A stretch of DNA of 64,000 nucleotides from an uncultured virus (IMG/VR IMGVR_UViG_3300027751_000010) (Duplodnaviria; Heunggongvirae; Uroviricota; Caudoviricetes), in the IMG/VR virus record IMGVR_UViG_3300027751_000010, one strand, 5' to 3'. Numbering within the stretch: position 1 is the stretch's first letter; the number at the start of each line of letters is the position of its first letter. Under the pieces are notes generated by a model. The model did no database searches, had not been told where the DNA came from, and was given only the letters and a program-made list of their open reading frames with translations. Shown piece after piece: positions 7,731 through 54,185 of the stretch. The translations under genes and the position numbers were made by a program.

Positions 7731-7952
7731 TTATTCTGCGAATTTCTCTAGTTGTCGGGAAGCTTCTTCTAGCGTAATAATGGGTTTATTAGCTTCATAC
7801 AATGCTAATAAACGTCTATGAAGGACCTCATCGTCATCTCGGCTAGCTTCACCAAGCTTAACGATTTGTGCTCCAGTGTCAATTAATTTGGATGGAGGAC
7901 ACTCGCGTAAAATTTTAGCAACGAGTATTCTGTTATTTTCTGAGAAGGACAT
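7731..7952 (-). CDS. hypothetical protein
   Basis: 73-aa ORF with RBS. Confidence 0.6.
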   Translation of the reverse strand: MSFSENNRILVAKILRECPPSKLIDTGAQIVKLGEASRDDDEVLHRRLLALYEANKPIITLEEASRQLEKFAE

Positions 7953-8322
7953 GCTTTTTCCTACTGTATGAGATAATGAAAAAGAATGTTAGGCCGAGCA
8001 TTAGCAATGTAAGCGAGCTTGGCTCAGGAACTGTTGTGGTCTGGTGACTGTCCTGCCACTGCTCCTCATGCTGCCCTGACCACTGGTAGCTGTAATCTTT
8101 ATCACCATACTGGTAGTTGTGTCGCATACCATTGTGAGAGAAATCTTCGTACTGCCAACTGTACTGAACCTTCTCATCGCTGTCATGCTGCGTATAGATC
8201 GGCGTAGCGTTGACCGCACACGAAAATGCAAGTAACAGTATCATAACAATAAGTGCGGCTACGCCGTTCCATGTTAAAATCTTGTAAACACGCTTGCCCA
8301 ATTCGTCCTCTAAACCACTCAT
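7933..8322 (-). CDS. PEP-CTERM sorting-domain protein
   Basis: N-terminal hydrophobic signal (..AVNA|TP); C-terminal VPEPSSLTLLMLGL-TM-RKK basic tail. Confidence 0.85.
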   Translation of the reverse strand: MSGLEDELGKRVYKILTWNGVAALIVMILLLAFSCAVNATPIYTQHDSDEKVQYSWQYEDFSHNGMRHNYQYGDKDYSYQWSGQHEEQWQDSHQTTTVPEPSSLTLLMLGLTFFFIISYSRKKHVLLRK

Positions 8323-11643: not shown

Positions 11644-11824
11644 CTCCTAAATAACACAAGCCCGACCTACCTAAAATAATTTCAGAACACGGGTTATTCT
11701 CCATCCGAGGTTCTACACCATACTTTAAGCGATTATAAAATTTGCGCTTGTCTCTTGCTCTTTCGTCCTCAGACTGAGGTACCATTTCATGCCAAACAAC
11801 AACTTCTGTAATTTTAACACTCAT
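11627..11824 (-). CDS. hypothetical protein
   Basis: contains [11 protein letters not shown]. Confidence 0.55.
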
Positions 11825-12405
11825 TCTTCTTCATCATCGTATATGGTATCGCGATTACATGCACGGAGTAACGCTTTGTGGTATGAGCAATGAGTAATAC
11901 TTTTACCTTTCCAATCATCCTCATCGACCTCTACAATTGTACATAAAGGACAGTCAGTTACGTCTAACGTTACGTGACCATTTTCTGCATAATCCAAAAT
12001 CGCATGTAATCTATCTCCACGCAATAGCTTTGCTAGATTCTCGTTAGGCTTGGGCGGAGCATCTAATGCGTCGTGAAATGCTTTTAAATCCTCATCACTA
12101 AGTTCCGGGTGCCGTTTCTTATATTCACCAAAACGATATGCAAGCTCATTAGCGATATGATGTAGCTGATCGCGCGCACGTATCTCGCTAGGGAAATACC
12201 GCTGTGCCGATTGGATTAACTGCTCATCTGTACAATTATCCACCATGGTCTCATCCTCAGTATTTTCATCTACGTAAAACTGCTCAGGCATCTTGTCTTG
12301 ATCCTTCAAAAACGTAAACTCGGCAAACTCCTCAGCCGACATTGAGCCAGCTTTGTACATGCCTAGCGCCGTTTCATACATTTCATCTAATAGTCTGCTC
12401 ATCAT
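11821..12405 (-). CDS. chimeric protein with HigA-like N-terminus and DUF1778 (TacA/AtaR)-like segment
   Basis: MSRLLDEMYETALGMYKAGSMSAEEFAEF and LSDEDLKAFHDALDAPPKPNENLAKLL. Confidence 0.55.
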   Translation of the reverse strand: MMSRLLDEMYETALGMYKAGSMSAEEFAEFTFLKDQDKMPEQFYVDENTEDETMVDNCTDEQLIQSAQRYFPSEIRARDQLHHIANELAYRFGEYKKRHPELSDEDLKAFHDALDAPPKPNENLAKLLRGDRLHAILDYAENGHVTLDVTDCPLCTIVEVDEDDWKGKSITHCSYHKALLRACNRDTIYDDEEE

Positions 12406-18012: not shown

Positions 18013-18345
18013 TTAGAAGCGGTGTGCAAATTCCACAGGCTGTTCATCTGAAACACACAGGACGGCGTCAGGCCAATCAATACCCCAAAGAGTAAAGCGT
18101 TCGCCATCATCGTCTACAAGGTCTAAGCCGCGTGTCCAACGACCATGCTCGACCAATACCCACTTGCCAGGTTCTAGGTCTGGGTCATTGATACCTGGAC
18201 CAACGGAATGTATCTTTGCCCAACGTGGACGTATGCCTTCGGACTTACCGTTATCATCGCGCAAGATGATTCCACCCTGTGTGCGGCGTTCACCTTTCTC
18301 TAGGCGCTCAACTAATATCTTTTTATACATTGCTTTAATCTTCAT
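18013..18345 (-). CDS. groES: co-chaperonin GroES-like
   Basis: KILVER..ERRTQGGIIL..D, VGPG, GKWVL. Confidence 0.85.
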   Translation of the reverse strand: MKIKAMYKKILVERLEKGERRTQGGIILRDDNGKSEGIRPRWAKIHSVGPGINDPDLEPGKWVLVEHGRWTRGLDLVDDDGERFTLWGIDWPDAVLCVSDEQPVEFAHRF

Positions 18346-33634: not shown

Positions 33635-34228
33635 CTATCTAGCCAGCGGACACCTGTTCATCAGTTCCATCAGCGCAACCTGCCAGTCGGTGAACTCTAA
33701 CGGCTGTAATTCTTCACCAGCTGGAATCTTAGGCCAATGGTAGGTAAACTGGTGTAGGCATGCTACTGGATCATAATTATATTGGTGGGTACTCCACGGC
33801 TTACGGATGGTCAAGTCAGGGTTTGCTCTGATCCATGACGCAGTCTCGTAAAATTCCTGCGGCAAGATGATTGCGACAGAGGTTGTGAGACTGGCAAGGA
33901 AGTCCATTGACTCAGTGAAAGGTGCCCACGGATATGGATTCTCATCCTCACACAATAGCGCAATGATCTTACGTAGTCCCATTACGTCTCCACCATTGAG
34001 ACACACCATGGTCTTGTGATCCTTGGACCAATCATAAAGCATCTTACCTGCATTAGCTTGCGCAGCAACATGTGGTGGAGGGTTATCACCAGTAGCTCTA
34101 GCCCAATCAACTAAATCAATTTTTTCATACTTGTTAAACAATTCGACAGCCGCATGACCAGCTTGAATACCTTGCTGGATCGAACTAAGCGGGAAAATCG
34201 TAAACGTATAGCATCTTAAATCAGTCAT
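33635..34228 (-). CDS. peptidyl-tRNA hydrolase Pth2-like protein
   Basis: GIQAGHAAVEL...W...KTMVCL...FTE...TTSVAI. Confidence 0.6.
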   Translation of the reverse strand: MTDLRCYTFTIFPLSSIQQGIQAGHAAVELFNKYEKIDLVDWARATGDNPPPHVAAQANAGKMLYDWSKDHKTMVCLNGGDVMGLRKIIALLCEDENPYPWAPFTESMDFLASLTTSVAIILPQEFYETASWIRANPDLTIRKPWSTHQYNYDPVACLHQFTYHWPKIPAGEELQPLEFTDWQVALMELMNRCPLAR

Positions 34229-34876: not shown

Positions 34877-35098
34877 TCAACCCATGCCATTTGCTGCTTT
34901 GCCCATGACTGCGCTCTCATCGCCAAACGGAATGCCGTTGATGATTCGAATCTGTGTCAGCCATTCGGCTAAACCGCGCCCTATTCCAGTAGGATAACCA
35001 TCATACTGTTGATACACACAGACCAATGGACTTACTGGCTTATCAGTGCGGCTCTTGTCGTTAGTAGGGAAAACATAAGTTAGTGAACGAGTACCCAT
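34877..35098 (-). pseudogene. apparently truncated member of the MGTRS...YxxxDGYP phage family
   Basis: ends at ANGMG-TGA; downstream DNA carries an unrelated startless C-terminal fragment. Confidence 0.55.
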
Positions 35099-35109
35099 AA
35101 TATTATTCC

Positions 35110-35298
35110 TTATTCAAATATAAAGATGAAGAATCGAAATGAGTCATTGACAGACATCAACACCCAACAAACGAAGACCATCATAAAAAATCCAGCTTTG
35201 ATTAGAATATTCAACCAATTCAACGGTGGCACTTGGATGAACCATATCAAATTCCAGACCATTGAGACTAGTAAGAACCAATGAATAGCAGTAGTCAT
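35110..35298 (-). CDS. small membrane protein
   Basis: two TM helices. Confidence 0.6.
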   Translation of the reverse strand: MTTAIHWFLLVSMVWNLIWFIQVPPLNWLNILIKAGFFMMVFVCWVLMSVNDSFRFFIFIFE

Positions 35299-35452
35299 TA
35301 CATATCCCTCTTATCACGGAATCCTATAAAAACCGGGAACCTTGGTTTGTCTTTCGAACCCGTGGCAAAGAATTTGTACTTCACAATCTTGCCTTCCAGA
35401 TTCGCCCTATCATCCCAAAGTTGCTGTCTCGTTGCAGCATCAAATCCTGTGC
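35298..35452 (-). pseudogene. C-terminal remnant of ATP-dependent DNA ligase (OB fold)
   Basis: hand-translated TGFDAATRQQLWDDRANLEGKIVKYKFFATGSKDKPRFPVFIGFRDKRDM*; ligase motif VI-like; no in-frame start. Confidence 0.85.
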
Positions 35453-35895: not shown

Positions 35896-36033
35896 TTATT
35901 CACTCAATCCGCCAATTAAAAATATCCAAATACCTGTGAAAGCGAGCGGAACATACAACAAACTACCGCTAATGGCTGTGTTGATACCTGCGATAACAAG
36001 TATAATTAATCCTGCTTTCTTAACAATATTCAT
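35896..36033 (-). CDS. small membrane protein (45 aa)
   Basis: hand-translated MNIVKKAGLIILVIAG...; ATGA overlap. Confidence 0.55.
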   Translation of the reverse strand: MNIVKKAGLIILVIAGINTAISGSLLYVPLAFTGIWIFLIGGLSE

Positions 36034-36275
36034 TCTGTTGGATTCCATATCCAGAGCTTGCGCTTCTTGCTCGCCTTGAATTCAGTTAAGCCCGTTGGGA
36101 TAGGCCCTTCGCGCCCTGCTCTACGTGCGGCGCTAGAAGAAGGAAAGATTCCCAACTCCCGCATCAACGCACTCAGTTCCGTAGACTCGGCAAACGTAAC
36201 TTCCTCGTCACCAAACAAGAGGGTCAGGTCATCCTCGACCCACGCGGAACTCTTTATGACTATGTTCTCGACCAT
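36030..36275 (-). CDS. stand-alone S4-like domain resembling the TyrRS C-terminus
   Basis: LSALMRELGIFPSSSAARR...G...KKR. Confidence 0.55.
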   Translation of the reverse strand: MVENIVIKSSAWVEDDLTLLFGDEEVTFAESTELSALMRELGIFPSSSAARRAGREGPIPTGLTEFKASKKRKLWIWNPTE

Positions 36276-36535
36276 TACGCCAACTTGCGGAGCTGTTCTG
36301 TGAGCCAGTCTCCAATCTCCAGTTTAGCATCGTTAACCGACTCGCCCCATTCAGGACGGGAAGCAATGTCAAGCTCTGCTAGCCTGCGCATCTGTTCAGA
36401 GAGCATCCCATCTTTGCCGAGGAGTTTAGCTCGCAGATCACTCAACACTTCTAGGTCGTCTGTGTTGCCTATATCTTCGCGGGCATTGTTTACAAGCATA
36501 TCAAGGTTTTTCAAGGCATCATTTACGTTAATCAT
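36275..36535 (-). CDS. stand-alone PheRS alpha N-terminal coiled-coil domain
   Basis: LSDLRAKLLGKDGMLSEQMRRLAEL....RPEWGESVNDAK matches the PheS N-terminal LGKKG...RP..G..N.AK pattern. Confidence 0.85.
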   Translation of the reverse strand: MINVNDALKNLDMLVNNAREDIGNTDDLEVLSDLRAKLLGKDGMLSEQMRRLAELDIASRPEWGESVNDAKLEIGDWLTEQLRKLA

Positions 36536-36573
36536 GTGTGTTTCCTTTATGTAATTCCCTACTTCTTACTCAT

Positions 36574-36632
36574 ATTATAACTGAAAAAGGGGAAAAAGTC
36601 AACATCTATCTTTACCGTAAATCAATGACTTA
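36574..36632 (-). promoter_or_regulatory. sigma70-like promoter TTGACT-N17-TATAAT with upstream AAATCAATGACTTA box
   Basis: -10 36574-79, -35 36597-602, box 36619-32. Confidence 0.8.
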
Positions 36633-37920: not shown

Positions 37921-38221
37921 CGAAATCTAAATCTATATAAAGTTTAAACGCACACGCATCCTTAGGAACATTAAATTCTATAGCGTAGCAGTAAATGTGT
38001 CTCAAATCCGAATACATTAAATTATATTTGGGAATGTTGCTAATCTTAGGTGCCCATTCTCTTTCTACTGTACCCTCACGTATATATCCGTCTACTTCGT
38101 ACCCTCGCCACTTCCCTGTGACATGTTTCCTGCACTGTTCTCTCACCTTCAACGTCCGCATAAATAATATTCGCGGAGGTTCCGAAAGACGTCCCAACGG
38201 AATTATGACCGTTTCCGACAT
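37907..38221 (-). CDS. hypothetical protein
   Basis: ends FNVPKDACAFKLY. Confidence 0.6.
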   Translation of the reverse strand: MSETVIIPLGRLSEPPRILFMRTLKVREQCRKHVTGKWRGYEVDGYIREGTVEREWAPKISNIPKYNLMYSDLRHIYCYAIEFNVPKDACAFKLYIDLDFDDYN

Positions 38222-38826
38222 TAGCTAAAATCGCTTCTACTTGCTAACACCTTGTCAGCAAAACCATACTTGACTGTTTCTTCCGCAGACAAGAATGTAT
38301 CTCTATCTAACATATGGATGAGTTTTTCTCTTGTCAGACCTGCTGAATTGTGCTTTAGATATAAGTCCGTCATTATATCTTTAGTACGCAGGAACTCATT
38401 CATATGCCTTTCCATATCTGATACCTTACCTTCTGTACCAGCGGATGGCTGATGAACCATTGTACGCGCTTGGGATAATACATATCGAGAGCCCGCAGCT
38501 CCAGCCTGGGCGATAAACGACCCCATGGAGCACGCCTGTCCCATAACTATTGTGGTGACAGGGCAACGAATAAATTGCATCGTATCGTAGACGGCCATAC
38601 CTGCTGTAACTGACCCGCCCGGACTATGTATATACATATTTATCGGTTTGTCAGGATTTTCTGCTTCTAGAAACAGCATCTGACCAACAATAATGTCGGC
38701 CATATCTTCGCTTACAGGTCCACGGAAAAACACAATGCGCTCCTTAAGCAACCTACTAAACAAGTCATACGACCGTTCACCATTTGCACTTTTCTCTATA
38801 ACCATTGGTACTAAGTAATTGTTCAT
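38221..38826 (-). CDS. clpP: ATP-dependent Clp protease proteolytic subunit
   Basis: GERSYDLFSRLLKERIVF, IHSPGG, ACSMG (Ser), MVHQP (His), RDTFL (Asp). Confidence 0.97.
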   Translation of the reverse strand: MNNYLVPMVIEKSANGERSYDLFSRLLKERIVFFRGPVSEDMADIIVGQMLFLEAENPDKPINMYIHSPGGSVTAGMAVYDTMQFIRCPVTTIVMGQACSMGSFIAQAGAAGSRYVLSQARTMVHQPSAGTEGKVSDMERHMNEFLRTKDIMTDLYLKHNSAGLTREKLIHMLDRDTFLSAEETVKYGFADKVLASRSDFS

Positions 38827-43280: not shown

Positions 43281-43595
43281 CTAGTGAAGATATCTAGGAA
43301 TATAGTAGAGAATATCTAGATCAGTTAAGTCATGTGGAGAGGAAGATGTTAACCGTTGAATTAGCTCATCTAGTTGTGTGCGAAGCCGATCTGGTTCTAT
43401 CTCTTCAGATAGTTTAGGGTCAATTGCTATCAGCAAATTGGCCTTCACACCCTCATCACGGAAGTAGTCCAATAGTTCATACTTTGCAAACGATTCGCCT
43501 GAATCAGCTACCAATAAACCAGCAAATTCAGCATCTACATACGCTACTATGACTGACTGATTTCTAAAATAATACTCATTTGGGATCAGTGACAA
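43281..43595 (-). CDS. hypothetical protein
   Basis: ORF downstream of ftsH. Confidence 0.55.
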   Translation of the reverse strand: MSLIPNEYYFRNQSVIVAYVDAEFAGLLVADSGESFAKYELLDYFRDEGVKANLLIAIDPKLSEEIEPDRLRTQLDELIQRLTSSSPHDLTDLDILYYIPRYLH

Positions 43596-45372
43596 TTTGC
43601 GTAAACTCCTCAGCGTTAATGGTTTCTTTTTCTATTAACAATTCGGCTACGGCATCTAGTGTTGCACGATGCTCCTTCAAGATATTTATCGCTTTTGTGT
43701 ATGCTTCGTTCACTAGGCGGGATATTTCAGCATCCACCCGCATTTTACTCGTCTCAGACAACACAAACGACTCTTCCATATTGCTCTGTTTGAAATTCAT
43801 CAACCCTGCTTTACTAAATCCCCACTTCGTTACCATATTCCTTGCTATCTCAGTAGCACGTTCCAAGTCATTACTAGCACCTGTTGTAATGTGCTTCTTA
43901 CCAAACACAAGTTGTTCTGCTGCTCTACCACCCATCAAACTAACCATCTTACATTCCAGGTAAGTGTGGCTGTGGCTGTACCTATCCTTTTCAGGCAAAT
44001 ACATCGTCATACCTAACGCACGACCACGCGGCACAATTGACACCTTGTAAATAGGATCGTGCTCTGGCATATGGAACCCAACAATAGCGTGGCCTGCTTC
44101 GTGGTATGCTGTCGTTCTAATTTCCTTTTTGTCCATTTTGAGAGACTTTTCTTTGCCCATCAAAATACGATCTCGCGCCTTTTCCATATCAGCCATTGTT
44201 ATGGTGTTTCGATCATCCTTCGCAACAATCATTGCAGCCTCGTTAATGAGATTTTTAATTTCAGCACCACTGTAACCAGGCGTACCTTGTGCAATGGCGT
44301 GCGTATCAACATCGTCGGCTGCTTTTTTTGCTGCTAGGTGTACTTTGAGGATTTGCTCTCGAGCATCAATGTCTGGTAGACCAATTGGAATCATTCTGTC
44401 AAAACGACCTGGACGTAGCAACGCACTATCTAACGTGTCCGGTCTGTTTGTTGCAGCAATAACAATGATACCTAAGTTTTGATCGAAGCCGTCAAGCTCC
44501 ACCAATAATTGATTCAGCGTCTGATCTGCTTCTCTATTGCCACCAGCAAACCCTGTGCCACGTTTGCCACCCACAGCATCAATTTCATCCAAAAACAATA
44601 ACGCAGGTGCCGCTGCACGTAATTGCACAAACATACTTCGCATACGTTTTGCACCAACACCCACAAACATTTCTACAAACTCTGACCCACTGATCGTAAA
44701 GAAAGGAACGCCAGCCTCACCTGCAATAGCGCGGGCTATCAGCGTCTTGCCTACACCCGGCGGACCATACATCAAAATGCCTCGAGGAATCTCAGCGCCA
44801 GCCTTCCAGTATTTTTGCGGGCTTTGTAGGAAGTCAATGATCTCACGCACCTCCTCAAAGTCACCTGGGTTACCTGCCACATCCTTTAGCGTGACCTTAT
44901 TAGCCGCAGGGTCAATAAGCTTCGCGGGGCTATCACCAAACGTAAGTATACCCCCATCACCCTTGCCTTTGTTTCTGTAGACCATAAACCACAATAGCAG
45001 TACAAACAAAACAATCGGACCAAACACCAAGAACAGTGTTCCCCATATAGAAGATTCCTTCGGCTTCTCAACTGAGACAGCTACTTCAATATCTTGCGCT
45101 GCCCGTTCTGCAATAGAGCCTAACAATCCTGAAGGAACTACAGTCTGGTGTATTTGGTGGGTAGGATCATCACGTAGCATATACATGATTGTTTTTTCGT
45201 CATTGAGGATATATAACGTGCTTAGGTTGTCTTGGTTTAAAACATAAAACCCGTAAGACTTTACGCTTTCTTTTACATCAACCTTTGTATATATATGGTA
45301 TGCAACACTAAGACTTGCTATAGCTACCAGTATGCAAGCAGCCATAAATATATTACCATTGCGCCTCTTCAC
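43576..45372 (-). CDS. ftsH: ATP-dependent zinc metalloprotease FtsH
   Basis: two TM helices, [32 protein letters not shown]. Confidence 0.97.
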
Positions 45373-46335: not shown

Positions 46336-46686
46336 TTAAGTATCTTCTTCTATGGTAACAACAAGTGGGAAACCTTCTGCCTTAGCAGTGCGTAAACAAA
46401 CCGCACACTTTTCTTCTGCTATCTCAAAAGGATAAACGCCAACAGTAGCGGCGCCTTTGTTATGGACGGTAAGCATAATTTCCGCAGCTTCGTCCAAAGT
46501 TTTGTGGAATACGTTGACAAGTAAAAACACAACAAACTGCATTGTTGTCTTATCGTCATTGTGGAATATAACTCGCCAAAGCTTTGGTTCAGTTACTTCA
46601 AGCTCAACCTCAACATCAAATTCTATGTCAGGATTAGCCATCACCTCTTCCCAAGTCTCTTCCCAAGTCCAGATATCGTCGCCCAT
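46336..46686 (-). CDS. clpS: N-end-rule adaptor ClpS
   Basis: P.LWRVIFHNDDKTTMQFV..LL..VF...A..IMLTVH..G.A.VGVY..EIAE.K...FPL. Confidence 0.95.
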   Translation of the reverse strand: MGDDIWTWEETWEEVMANPDIEFDVEVELEVTEPKLWRVIFHNDDKTTMQFVVFLLVNVFHKTLDEAAEIMLTVHNKGAATVGVYPFEIAEEKCAVCLRTAKAEGFPLVVTIEEDT

Positions 46687-46715
46687 AAAATTGCCCCTTA
46701 GAGTGCTACATCCAT

Positions 46716-46744
46716 ATTATAACACAACTAAGGGGCAATGTCAA
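46716..46744 (-). promoter_or_regulatory. sigma70-like promoter TTGACA-N17-TATAAT
   Basis: perfect consensus; spanned by a 12-bp inverted repeat. Confidence 0.85.
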
Positions 46745-46747
46745 GAC

Positions 46748-47179
46748 TTATATCTTTTTAATTTCTATCTTTTTAGGGATTTGCTCGACGGGAATCTCTC
46801 GTTCAAATGAGATGATTAACAACCCATTGTCGAATTTTGCATCTTGTATCTTCCATCCCCCAACGATCTCAAATGTCCGACGGAAACTGCGAGCAGAGAT
46901 TCCTCTGTACACGTAGTTTTTATCTTCCACACCCTCTGTCTTTTCTTTCGTACCAGAGATTGATAAGATGTTATCTGACATTGTGATTTCGATTTCCTCG
47001 GGTGAGAAACCAGCAACCGCAAGCTCAATGTCTTGGTTGTTATCACCATGCTTCACAATATTGTGAGGAGGATAGGTTTCGGTTGGAAAGGATTTGAACT
47101 TGTCAAATAGACTGTCAAAGCCGAGGAGGTTTTTTTCAAAGTCTGCCCAAGTGGCAGGTAGGTTGGATATTCTAGTCAT
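46748..47179 (-). CDS. small heat shock protein (Hsp20/IbpA-like)
   Basis: GFD.LF, YPPHNI, IELAVAGF, YRGISARSF.RTF, NGLL.I; start MTRISN with AAGGAG. Confidence 0.95.
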   Translation of the reverse strand: MTRISNLPATWADFEKNLLGFDSLFDKFKSFPTETYPPHNIVKHGDNNQDIELAVAGFSPEEIEITMSDNILSISGTKEKTEGVEDKNYVYRGISARSFRRTFEIVGGWKIQDAKFDNGLLIISFEREIPVEQIPKKIEIKKI

Positions 47180-47259
47180 TGTCTTACTCCTTATTAGCAA
47201 GTAAAGTTTTGGGCACCATGCCCTAAAGTGTAAAGCCCGCTATCGGCACCTTACAAACT
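47180..47259 (-). promoter_or_regulatory. ROSE-like RNA thermometer in the hsp20 5' UTR
   Basis: three hairpins; the last is CUUUACUUGCU-AAUA-AGGAGUAAG with UUGCU opposite the SD. Confidence 0.7.
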
Positions 47260-47457: not shown

Positions 47458-48213
47458 CTACCTATAGCCGAAAATCCTACGACCGTAGTAGTATCCATTT
47501 CCAAACACTCCATGTCCATAGGAGCTCTCACAAAGGACAGTATTATTAGAAGTGAGTCGGTGGAAAATTTGCGGATTGCGATCCACTAACTGCAATTCTT
47601 CTTGTTGAACTTCCTTGTCTGCAACGCGCATGATAGTGATTTCCACTCGACGGTTTCTCTGCCGTCCTTCTGGATCATCTCTACCATCGGGCCATTCGTT
47701 TTGTGCAATGGGGTAGTCTTCGCCACCTGTTCCCGTTACAATATCCTCACTTGGGAATCCAAGATAAGACAAAACGTTTGCTACTGCTGATGCCCTGCGT
47801 AGACCTAAAGCATAGTTATATTCTTCTGTGCCCTTAGCGTCTGTGTGTCCAATAACCTCAATTTCAGTTACACCAAACTCCATCAACTTTGCGTACACAG
47901 TCTCAGCCAAAAGGGACTCGCCCTCAGGCAGAACTACATCTTTATCAAAGTCAAACAAGATAGTGGCTGGAATTTCAATTACGTCACCTGGGACTAGCAT
48001 AGTAATAGTCGTTAGTGCTAATCCCCTAGTCATTGAGACAGGATTGATAACACAGTCATTACCTGGAAGTCCCATCGGTACACCATAGTGCGCTCCTGCA
48101 CCTTGTGCACCGTAACCTGGTTTCATTTCCACGGGCTGGTCGGGGAACAAAGCCCCCGCCATACCGATCGAAGGGAGAACCAACACCAATAGTGCTATTA
48201 GTATTGTTTTCAT
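47458..48213 (-). CDS. OmpA-family peptidoglycan-binding protein
   Basis: signal peptide; ILFDFDK, GHTDAKG...YN..LG.RRA..V, NRRVEI. Confidence 0.92.
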   Translation of the reverse strand: MKTILIALLVLVLPSIGMAGALFPDQPVEMKPGYGAQGAGAHYGVPMGLPGNDCVINPVSMTRGLALTTITMLVPGDVIEIPATILFDFDKDVVLPEGESLLAETVYAKLMEFGVTEIEVIGHTDAKGTEEYNYALGLRRASAVANVLSYLGFPSEDIVTGTGGEDYPIAQNEWPDGRDDPEGRQRNRRVEITIMRVADKEVQQEELQLVDRNPQIFHRLTSNNTVLCESSYGHGVFGNGYYYGRRIFGYR

Positions 48214-48223
48214 ATCGTCCCCC

Positions 48224-49423
48224 TTATAGTGCGCCAAGTGTAATTATGTGCCTAACGTAACCCATGCCACCTTTCCACTTTGCGTGGCGTGCAGCCGCTT
48301 CAACCCACTTTTCAGCCTCTTCCATTTTGCCCATTGCCATATAAGCATCAGCCATCATGAGAGCCTGGCAAACATCGTTTGTAACAGACACGGACAGACC
48401 GAAGTCACGTCCCTGACCTGCTGCACCACTATTGCAAAGTCCAGAGAAGGACGGTGCAACACCATTAACGGGCATTTCAGTAGCTTCGTTAATAGTACGT
48501 GCGTCAACGTTAATGTCAGTGGTATCACCTTCAACGACCTGAGAAGAACCTTCAACGACCTGTGAAGTGCCACCAGTTGTTCCTTCAGGGAAATTGTTGT
48601 TGACCACTACACTGTTATTCAACTCATTGTTAGCAGAGCTATCACCTGAGGTTGCAGTTGCATCAGCGTTTGAGTTCAACGTTCCAGATCCACCCTCGCA
48701 TCCACCCTCTGAACACTCGCCCTGATAACCACCACCAATGACAAGCGTGTTGCCTGCATTGTAGGAGTTGTCAGTGTTGTCTACTGTAGTAGTCTGGTCA
48801 CCGTTTGTGGCGGTTACGTCACCAACGTTAGATGAAAGGATACCAGAACCGCCTTCGCTGCCCTGACCTTCGCTATAACCAGTACCAATGTTGATGGAGG
48901 CATTACCGCCTGCTCCACCCTCAGAGAATGACGAAGATGTGTTTGTGTTGCTTGTGTCACCAACGGTTGCTGTCGGGGAGAAAGAGTTTATATCACCTCC
49001 AGGTGCACTTTCGCCTTCACCATAGCCACTTGTGTTGATTCCACCAACGCTCACATTTACGTCACCTACGCTACCACCAGTAGCAGTATTAGTATTATCT
49101 GAATTACCAGACCCAAACACACCAGCACCAGATACCGACGTTGCATCGCCACCTGTTGCTACCTGACCCTGAATCTGGCCCTGTAACTGACCTTGTGCTT
49201 GGCCTTGTTCCTGGCCTTGCTGGTTAGTGTTGGTATTACTATTGTTGTTGGTATTAGTATACGATCCGCCAGTTGAATCGCCACCGCCGCCATTATCATC
49301 ATCACCTGGGTGACAACCTTGTGCTGGAGGATCTTCTGCCCCATTCCCACCACCACAATCTGCCAGAGCAGGCATCGAAAATGCAAGCATCATGCTTACA
49401 AAAATTGCCATTACATATTTCAC
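48224..49423 (-). CDS. secreted Gly/Ser/Asn/Thr-rich repeat protein
   Basis: signal peptide (..PALA|D), low-complexity beta-repeat body, Cys-containing C-domain; GTG start with AAGGAG. Confidence 0.75.
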   Translation of the reverse strand: MKYVMAIFVSMMLAFSMPALADCGGGNGAEDPPAQGCHPGDDDNGGGGDSTGGSYTNTNNNSNTNTNQQGQEQGQAQGQLQGQIQGQVATGGDATSVSGAGVFGSGNSDNTNTATGGSVGDVNVSVGGINTSGYGEGESAPGGDINSFSPTATVGDTSNTNTSSSFSEGGAGGNASINIGTGYSEGQGSEGGSGILSSNVGDVTATNGDQTTTVDNTDNSYNAGNTLVIGGGYQGECSEGGCEGGSGTLNSNADATATSGDSSANNELNNSVVVNNNFPEGTTGGTSQVVEGSSQVVEGDTTDINVDARTINEATEMPVNGVAPSFSGLCNSGAAGQGRDFGLSVSVTNDVCQALMMADAYMAMGKMEEAEKWVEAAARHAKWKGGMGYVRHIITLGAL

Positions 49424-49602: not shown

Positions 49603-49878
49603 TTAATATAATCTCTTTCCAAACACCTTAGCATTTGATTCTTCTAGCTGTTTCCTTGCTCTCTTCTTAGCAATTGCTTTTGTGCGCTTACGTACCATAG
49701 ATGGTTTCTCGTAAAATTCTCTATCTTTCAGCTCACGTAGTAGTCCAGAGTCTTGTACTTTCTTATTAAAAATACGCAACGCCTTGTCAAACTTTCCGTC
49801 TTCTACCATTACTCTTAGCCCTTCAAGTTTCGGTGTTTCGATTCTCTTTGGAGCAAATCTTGTCTTTTTATTAATCAT
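49603..49878 (-). CDS. rpsU: ribosomal protein bS21
   Basis: FDKALRIFNKKV...G.LREL..REFYEKPS..RKR. Confidence 0.92.
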   Translation of the reverse strand: MINKKTRFAPKRIETPKLEGLRVMVEDGKFDKALRIFNKKVQDSGLLRELKDREFYEKPSMVRKRTKAIAKKRARKQLEESNAKVFGKRLY

Positions 49879-51071
49879 TCGTCATTCACCTTTCGTTTAA
49901 CGTAGTGTAGTGTTGGTATCCCCGCCTCATTCATTATAACTTTGGTCACGCCTTTCTTATATAATGAAGGAAGTTGAAATTGTGTTTTAGATAACGCTTT
50001 CTCTAATACTCCTTGTAGTCCCCTTGCGCCTGTCTTTTCTTTCATTGCCTTTGTTGCAACTGACCGCAAGTAAATAGGACTAAATTCTAATTCAATGTTA
50101 TCTAATTGAAATAAACTCTTATACTGATCTGCAATACAATCCTGCGGTTCAACTAGAATTCTCGTCAACATATTTTCATCTAATTCGTGTAACGCAATAA
50201 TAACTGGGAAGCGTCCTACGAATTCAGGAATCATTCCAAACTTAATTAAATCTTCTGATCCTGTATCTAATAATAGCATATCTGTATGTGGTTTGTCAAC
50301 TGTTGCGTTAAATCCGATTGTAGAATACTCTCTTCTGTGCTCTTTAATAATATCTTCTAGACCAACAAATGCACCAGCTGCAATAAACAAAACGTTTGTC
50401 GTGTCAAAACTTCCACCGTGTTTTGGTAGGTCAATGGTCGTGCCTTCAATCAGTTTCAACAAAGCCTGCTGTACGCCCTCACCTGACACATCTCTTGACA
50501 CTGTGCTGCCTTCAGTTTTGCGGCTCTTCTTATCTATTTCATCAAGATAAATTATGCCGTTTTGCGCTGCCTCAATGTCACCGTTTGCTTTGCTTATCAA
50601 ACGTTCAATCAAGTGCTCTACATCTTCGCCAACGTATCCCGCTTCCGTCAAAGATGTTGCGTCAGCATGTACAAACGGAATGTCAAGCAAGCTCGCAACT
50701 GTGCTAACAAGAAGAGTCTTGCCCGTTCCGCTGGGCCCAATCAATAAAGCGTTTGATTTCTTTAGTGTCGTGGTACCCACAGTAGGGTGTTTGATACGCT
50801 TAAAATGGTTGTATATGGTCACAGACAGTGCTTCTTTGGCTGTATGCTGTTCAACAATATACTTGTCGAGGTGAGCTTTAATCTCTTCTGGCGAAGGATT
50901 CTTTAGCGGCTTGAGTTCGGCTTTAGTCTTATGTATAGCGTTGTATCCTACTTCTATACATTCATCACAAATATAAGATGTCTCTTTATCTAATAATTCG
51001 GGACCGGAAACAATCTTCTTTACTTCGTGGATCGTCTTTGTGCAGAAACTACAGGCTATCTTGTCTTTCAT
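49875..51071 (-). CDS. clpX: ATP-dependent Clp protease ATPase ClpX
   Basis: CSFC...C.EC zinc finger, GPSGTGKT, LTEAGYVGEDV, RDVSGEGVQQ, IGF loop, TGARGL. Confidence 0.97.
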   Translation of the reverse strand: MKDKIACSFCTKTIHEVKKIVSGPELLDKETSYICDECIEVGYNAIHKTKAELKPLKNPSPEEIKAHLDKYIVEQHTAKEALSVTIYNHFKRIKHPTVGTTTLKKSNALLIGPSGTGKTLLVSTVASLLDIPFVHADATSLTEAGYVGEDVEHLIERLISKANGDIEAAQNGIIYLDEIDKKSRKTEGSTVSRDVSGEGVQQALLKLIEGTTIDLPKHGGSFDTTNVLFIAAGAFVGLEDIIKEHRREYSTIGFNATVDKPHTDMLLLDTGSEDLIKFGMIPEFVGRFPVIIALHELDENMLTRILVEPQDCIADQYKSLFQLDNIELEFSPIYLRSVATKAMKEKTGARGLQGVLEKALSKTQFQLPSLYKKGVTKVIMNEAGIPTLHYVKRKVNDE

Positions 51072-53700: not shown

Positions 53701-53886
53701 CTAATCTCCTTTTTTACTATCTAAATATTGTGTTAAATCTTCCCAGTCGATTTCCTCGACCTTTTTAGATTCGATTGCGCGAATCTCTGCCTCAATTCTT
53801 CGTTCGTCCGCTCGACACACGGGACAACCCTGCGCACAAAAACCCGTGTCAGTAACCCAGTGTCCTAAGTATTCGGCCGTAACCAT
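53701..53886 (-). CDS. hypothetical protein
   Basis: H...C...CPVC. Confidence 0.55.
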   Translation of the reverse strand: MVTAEYLGHWVTDTGFCAQGCPVCRADERRIEAEIRAIESKKVEEIDWEDLTQYLDSKKGD

Positions 53887-54185
53887 TATTTTGCCTTATC
53901 ACCTGCTGTGTACTGTGTGCTACCTGTGCCCCACGTCCTTGGCCTATTAACTTCTGGACCGTGTGTGCCAGTGTGCCAAACATCCTCAGGAATTACTTCT
54001 TTGCTAAAGTCTATATGACCTGCGGCAATTTCTCTCAACGCAATCACTGTGGATTTGTCATCGTTGACCGGTACTTTCGGTTCTGCACCCTTCTCTAATT
54101 GGTACGCCCGTTTTGCTGCGATACGAATTAACTCGTATACATTATCGCATTGTGCAAGTGAATCTTCGATTGTTACTCTAGCCAT
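53886..54185 (-). CDS. rpoZ: RNA polymerase omega subunit
   Basis: MARVTIED...N.YEL..IAAKRA.QL..GAEP.V...DK.TVIALREIAAG. Confidence 0.93.
   Translation of the reverse strand: MARVTIEDSLAQCDNVYELIRIAAKRAYQLEKGAEPKVPVNDDKSTVIALREIAAGHIDFSKEVIPEDVWHTGTHGPEVNRPRTWGTGSTQYTAGDKAK

Follow-up and report, generated by a model that had tools for sequence, protein, structure and literature searches.

Two adjacent genes on the minus strand of a 64-kb stretch of DNA (64,000 nucleotides, referred to as the window) encode small proteins that resemble the tRNA-contacting parts of two aminoacyl-tRNA synthetases. Gene A consists of the N-terminal helical domain of the PheRS α-subunit, and gene B is a shortened relative of the C-terminal S4-like domain of TyrRS. 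The two are real, apparently undescribed variants of known RNA-binding domains. Since gene B is a member of a phage family that is both old and widespread, and since the PheS N-terminal domain was captured separately at least twice, both proteins probably hold tRNA during infection, as judged from sequence comparisons. The reading we favour, with a little less than even confidence, is that both are non-catalytic mini-proteins which bind tRNA, were acquired independently of each other and are made early from a host-polymerase promoter. The locus comprises the following features.

36574-36602, minus strand: sigma70-type promoter-like site, 11/12 consensus matches, 17-nt spacer, ~40 nt before gene A; putative function
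36540-36550, minus strand: purine-rich, ribosome-binding-site-like stretch before gene A, read from the sequence
36275-36535, minus strand: gene A, 86 aa, intact ORF, stand-alone PheRS α-subunit N-terminal (α1) helical domain
36030-36275, minus strand: gene B, 81 aa, intact ORF, phrog_11006 / KVP40.0283 family, related to the TyrRS C-terminal S4-like domain but shorter
35896-36033, minus strand: small hydrophobic ORF coupled to the gene B stop, 45 aa from the coupled start
33635-34228, minus strand: Pth2-like gene, 197 aa, weak Pth2 likeness, 1.8 kb downstream

Both ORFs are intact, as stated in a preliminary description of this DNA, and the coupling reported there was confirmed, the stop codon of gene A overlapping the start codon of gene B by one base. 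Gene B is also coupled to the small hydrophobic ORF behind it (a 50-aa frame without Pfam or PHROG match), so that coupling alone does not mark genes A and B as a unit. The strong promoter noted before gene A also held up as a promoter-like site. Sites with 11 or 12 of the 12 consensus positions occur 18 times on the minus strand of the window, compared with 0–2 times in 10 block shuffles, and strong promoter-like sites are thus more frequent than expected by chance; a local scan for loose sites yielded 17, with 17.6 expected. A site with at least 10 matches lies within 400 nt at 26 of 67 gene B homologue loci, which were not merged for kinship, versus 110 of 621 background windows. Genes A and B would be expressed early by the host polymerase. 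Their GC3 values (0.52 and 0.60, respectively) exceed that of most of 26 other genes (about 0.4), and the codon fit of gene B is the lowest of all. It is therefore possible that both genes arrived jointly in this lineage.

Gene A and the capture of PheS α1 domains

Gene A had been described as the PheS N-terminal domain only, and profile and fold comparisons agree. The protein matches PF02912 (Phe_tRNA-synt_N) with 49.1 bits (cut-off 22.3, E 5.6e-13) and, in a PDB search, residues 2-73 of Pseudomonas aeruginosa PheS (E 1.3e-8). Its predicted model consists of four helices (pLDDT 93.8) arranged in the all-helical α1 fold, and ranks 1–9 of the fold comparison are all PheS chains. The ORF ends with a stop codon after residue 86, and in the window a full PheS query matches residues 1-71 only. 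No PheS or TyrRS catalytic part was found in the 64-kb window. The claim that both genes are stand-alone, synthetase-derived and devoid of a catalytic domain is supported. Gene A shares with the α1 domain of PheRS (PF02912; P. aeruginosa 4p71, E. coli 3pco, M. tuberculosis 7k98) the motif, the length, the helical fold and the Arg and Asn of the tRNA-elbow contact. It differs in being free-standing, phage-encoded, without catalytic domain, more acidic, and altered from Lys to Asp in a conserved turn.

Compared with 22 bacterial domains, gene A is unaltered in all 11 invariant PheS-N columns and retains 18 of the 25 conserved ones, with 20% matches elsewhere, a result favoured by the choice of the reference rows, which are the best matches of gene A. 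According to the accessible text of PMC8136816, the M. tuberculosis α1 domain binds G19/U20 and C56/G57 through Asp37, Arg45, Arg56, Ala57 and Asn64. Arg60 and Asn68 of gene A correspond to Arg56 and Asn64 in this list (register offset of 4, taken from the aligned ranges). The Lys42 column, 95% conserved in the most conserved turn of PheS-N, is occupied by Asp in gene A, and the net charge is −6, versus a mean of +0.5 (sd 1.6) for the bacterial domains. This acidic shift calls for caution about tRNA binding.

PheS-N matches were found in 333 of 400 sampled genomes, which belong to one class reached from an Ectothiorhodospiraceae bin; this tally and the top match include genomes flagged as unpublished (G319, G152, G050 and G307), which were used for no other result. 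Among the matches listed, no published genome exceeds 43% identity to gene A, and each of the 150 listed matches lies in an open frame of >320 aa. No close relative of gene A was found.

When viral contigs were scanned with a PheS-N alignment, four loci were recovered: three full-length pheS genes and a 93-aa stand-alone PheS-N gene (L247, 2492-2773, equivalent to L250, 2501-2782) located between YopX-like and other small phage genes. The L247 contig (152,753 bp, 91% complete) contains no PheS catalytic domain, gene B homologue or tRNA gene. Its product shares 81 of 85 positions with a full-length PheS from its own cluster but only 22 of 79 with gene A, which makes it a separate capture. By these alignments, the PheS α1 domain has been captured at least twice by unrelated phages, once long ago and once recently. 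Both captures end near residue 80-85, the border of α1. The 90% cluster of L247 includes, besides full-length PheS, forms of 83, 93 and 101 aa. One of these forms lies on a contig of 308,986 bp, and those of 83 aa may be host genes frameshifted in assembly.

These observations bear on an alternative in which gene B is functional and gene A is what is left of a captured pheS, neutral or in decay, a 5' fragment that persists because it retains a start codon and folds into a harmless domain. Syntenic relatives lack gene A, which is a singleton, is acidic and carries the Lys-to-Asp change in the most conserved turn. The L247 copy hardly differs from host PheS, as expected of any recent fragment, and the variable lengths in its cluster fit the same account. 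However, gene A has kept all 11 invariant columns at an identity to PheS of at most 43% (published genomes of the 400, among the matches listed), and its frame, promoter and start site are intact. In addition, two unrelated phages cut pheS at the same domain border, and no remaining pheS lies beside either copy. A relic of this kind is considered unlikely, although it is the strongest of the competing accounts.

Gene B and its phage family

Gene B had been likened to the TyrRS S4-like domain. It is a full-length member of phrog_11006 (residues 4-81 aligned to positions 2-80 of the 80-residue profile, E 1.9e-26), a family of hypothetical proteins without functional annotation that includes KVP40.0283 of Vibrio phage KVP40; the link to TyrRS is made here. 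No Pfam family was matched by gene B itself, the cut-off of PF22421 (SYY_C-terminal) not being reached. Among 150 relatives, 19 match PF22421 below its cut-off (best 22 bits versus 27) and two match S4 Pfam, likewise below cut-off. Alignment of the gene B family to the TyrRS C-domain with hhalign gave a probability of 94% (pairwise E 1.5e-7) and a score of 39.6 over 56 columns, compared with at most 17.1 in 30 column shuffles. The match covers the helical hairpin motif, the preceding strand and the terminal basic strand. Twenty template residues, from the second helix to the terminal strand (the L-loop region of the αL motif), have no counterpart in gene B. On the profile evidence, the likeness to the TyrRS C-domain is real but remote: the earlier assignment stands as a distant relationship, the L-loop region and a Pfam match of its own being absent.

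The domain shared with TyrRS (PF22421; E. coli 6hb5, 1jh3) comprises the Ser-x3-Ala-Arg helical hairpin and the two strands mentioned above. In contrast to it, gene B stands alone, has ~20 fewer L-loop residues, stays below the Pfam cut-off and carries an extra C-terminal motif with near-invariant Trp, Asn and Pro, which TyrRS does not have. Basic residues 51, 52, 70 and 71 of gene B, which align with TyrRS motifs, are kept in 65–87% of 109 distant rows.

The family comprises 330 clusters at 50% identity, and 147 of its best 150 members are 43–176 aa long. Homologues are present in 73 of 50,697 phage records. Conservation as a stand-alone gene, which had been proposed as a check, was found: the median dN/dS is 0.148 over 143 pairs, a value that indicates purifying selection on gene B. 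Such an old phage family with a dN/dS of ~0.15 is no deletion relic, and this origin was excluded for gene B. Full-length synthetases in related phages, named in the preliminary description as counter-evidence, were not found either. The TyrRS catalytic domain is absent from five out of five gene B-carrying records, and the PheS catalytic domain from three fragmentary syntenic relatives as well as from the L247 phage.

Several members of the family have particular contexts. The homologue of Vibrio phage 2.275.O (L012, 4001-4246; MG592671.1, 27129-27374) is unannotated, an overlapping ORF in another frame having been called instead. In Vibrio phage Gary a putative RNA ligase gene directly follows the homologue (L014, 3998-5178), and in KVP40 a QueE-like radical SAM gene does (L015, 4004-5136); the neighbours differ in other phages. 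In a 302-aa protein (P0128, from a cluster of six sequences) the gene B domain is fused to an FkbM-type methyltransferase. A structural match to an 87-aa protein of Bacillus phage Shbh1 (BFVD A0A142F196; TM 0.66, E 3e-3, 16% identity) hints that the family, as modelled, reaches phages of Gram-positive hosts.

Gene A was found in none of 74 gene B loci and in none of 10 gene B-carrying records, four of which are small fragments. The syntenic relatives have ClpP, an exonuclease and the Pth2-like gene in common, and their interval between promoter and gene B holds an unrelated ~70-aa gene or nothing. The notion of a two-gene module was thus not supported, and with a co-occurrence of 0/74 the A–B pair is not conserved. 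In the related phages L002 (4787-4999), L024 (2784-2990), L038 (996-1205) and L003 (4046-4258), the first gene after the strong promoter encodes a conserved ~70-aa protein unrelated to gene A.

Other small proteins without a catalytic part, which gene B may resemble in an S4-like fold, are Hsp15, RqcP, YbcJ and YlmH. These keep the full αL motif and bind the ribosome. In the fold comparison of gene B, TyrRS-C and stand-alone S4 proteins tie within 1 Z. Gene B might therefore act on the ribosome like Hsp15, RqcP and YlmH, recycling stalled peptidyl-tRNA together with the product of the downstream Pth2-like gene. The profile nevertheless prefers TyrRS-C, with its terminal basic strand included in the 56 columns, over the other S4 domains tested, of which the best scored 29.1 over 26 columns; the relatives with weak SYY_C-terminal matches also outnumber those with S4 matches. 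Moreover, the Pth2-like gene is present in 10 of 74 gene B loci, all in one syntenic phage group. It scored 13.4 bits with PF01981 (PTH2), whose cut-off is 23 (E 0.089), which leaves the Pth2 label unconfirmed. It matches phrog_3668 'hydrolase' with an E of 3.4e-22, and no Pth2 chain appeared among its solved-structure matches at E up to 10. Of the earlier statement, the presence of a gene 1.8 kb downstream was retained; a special link to genes A and B is weak and was not supported. A ribosomal role for gene B is accordingly judged improbable, more so than decay of gene A.

tRNA genes and possible roles of the two proteins

tRNA genes occur in 16 of 59 metagenomic gene B loci. By cluster, 13 of 37 bear tRNA genes; the expectation is 2.9 when derived from seven carrier genomes and 6.3 when the worst of these is taken (P 0.006). 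A control gene, drawn from a collection other than that of the gene B loci, had tRNA in one of 48 loci; after merging near-identical loci the comparison was 1/13 versus 13/41 for gene B (p 0.15). Each of the seven near-complete gene B carriers tested has 15–31 tRNA matches, the family being distributed among unrelated phages rich in tRNA genes, and in five cultured carriers gene B is at least 11 kb away from the tRNA arrays. In L032 (3259-3433) the stop of the gene B homologue is followed after 10 nt by two tRNA-Tyr genes, and a tRNA-Cys gene follows gene B just as closely in L061 and L062. With Tyr accounting for four of 60 tRNAs near gene B loci, a special link to tRNA-Tyr genes was not upheld. 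The distribution is suggestive of a link between gene B and tRNA regions without Tyr specificity.

In the accessible text of PMC4275181, TyrRS C-domains bind the variable arm and the anticodon arm and, when isolated, bind RNA non-specifically, which fits a general role. In the favoured reading of two tRNA-binding mini-proteins, gene B would grip the tRNA body on the side where the variable arm and the anticodon stem lie, through the conserved basic helical hairpin and the terminal basic strand, presumably with little amino-acid specificity. Gene A would touch the elbow (D and T loops) with the retained Arg60/Asn68 face. Together they may coat, fold or stabilize host and phage tRNAs and keep translation going while host RNA is degraded. 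Their adjacency would not reflect a complex: the first gene after the promoter varies, and gene A may have been inserted at this position.

Alternatively, the two proteins could modify host PheRS and TyrRS or compete with them as dominant negatives, shifting charging to phage tRNAs in the manner of T4 Vs. Both domains copy synthetase surfaces that contact tRNA, and both genes lie behind an early-type promoter. The vs gene of T4 encodes a ValRS modifier that matters in minimal medium, according to the available part of PMC13716836. Against this, both domains lack the dimer or catalytic core without which they could not become part of the enzyme (PMC3275996 and PMC4275181, in their accessible text), a lytic phage needs Phe and Tyr charging, and the neighbouring tRNA genes have no Tyr/Phe bias. 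Modulation of the synthetases is thus quite improbable. An equally poor chance is given to a repurposing of both proteins as protein-binding modules that have lost RNA binding, for example as mimics or decoys for defence proteins recognizing synthetases or tRNA complexes. The acidity of gene A would suit such a function, as would the missing L-loop region of gene B and its Trp/Asn/Pro motif foreign to TyrRS, but the best-kept residues in both proteins are the RNA contacts of the parent enzymes.

A bolder proposal, rather unlikely, though slightly less so than a ribosomal role for gene B, is that phages reduce synthetases to their tRNA-gripping domains and use these as armour, a novel type of anti-defence protein with which the substrate is protected rather than the nuclease inhibited. 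The gene B family would cover the long variable arm of tRNA-Tyr, the site cut by Septu and retron-Eco7 PtuAB, and the repeatedly captured PheS α1 would cap the elbow. Septu and retron-Eco7 were both described as cutting tRNA-Tyr in the variable loop (available text of PMC13096335 and PMC11555353), and this is the region contacted by the TyrRS S4-like motif. T4 Vs and the phage tRNA-Tyr that counters retron-Eco7 and Septu are likewise phage means of acting on tRNA charging or survival (PMC13716836, PMC11555353 and PMC13096335, in the parts available). Unlike genes A and B, Vs is not described as a synthetase-derived domain in the accessible part of PMC13716836. The escapes from Septu and retrons given in the available text of PMC11555353 and PMC13096335 are an extra tRNA, Rad or a protein in which no domain is known, with no tRNA-binding synthetase domain among them. 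A literature search, short on subscription journals and without supplements, returned no report of phage genes for a stand-alone PheS-N or TyrRS-C.

Large phages carry tRNA-related genes for reasons that are not settled, tRNA-cutting defences being now known as a main one. The escapes in the literature available consist of extra or altered tRNAs, or of proteins aimed at the defence system. If the armour proposal is true, a conserved phage family whose parent TyrRS domain binds the very arm that Septu cuts would offer a directly testable third route of escape, with KVP40.0283 as a cultured model. The TyrRS likeness is also a first functional lead for phrog_11006, and the repeated capture of PheS α1 is caught in one old and one very recent state.

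Surroundings of the locus in the window

The window reads as part of a large marine phage. Nearly all its genes are on the minus strand, its DNA is contained in marine metagenome runs, and the proteins of genes A and B are both found on contigs of up to 149,249 bp. The 64 kb contain neither a tRNA gene nor an Rfam match. In one run (X1), a contig joins across a 561-nt deletion (window 34885-35447) that removes several small ORFs downstream of gene B; the depth is 4.9 versus 10.4, and the short side of the join measures 30 letters only, which makes the deletion uncertain.

Host-like genes of the window encode GroES, ClpP, ClpX, ClpS, FtsH, Hsp20, ribosomal protein S21, RNA polymerase omega, FolE, QueD, ThyA and ribonucleotide reductase. 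Those for proteostasis, translation and transcription (GroES, ClpP, FtsH, ClpS, Hsp20, S21, ClpX and RNA polymerase omega) form a dense set at 18013-18345, 38221-38826, 43576-45372, 46336-47200, 49603-51071 and 53886-54185. A 177-aa ORF at 19322-19855 matches PF07733 (DNA polymerase III alpha NTPase domain) over positions 19-94 of 260 only; it is either a split gene or a further case of a short domain of host type. This phage also encodes a protein with a PEP-CTERM sorting motif, a match to a TacA-like antitoxin and a protein with an OmpA domain (7933-8322, 11821-12405 and 47458-48237).
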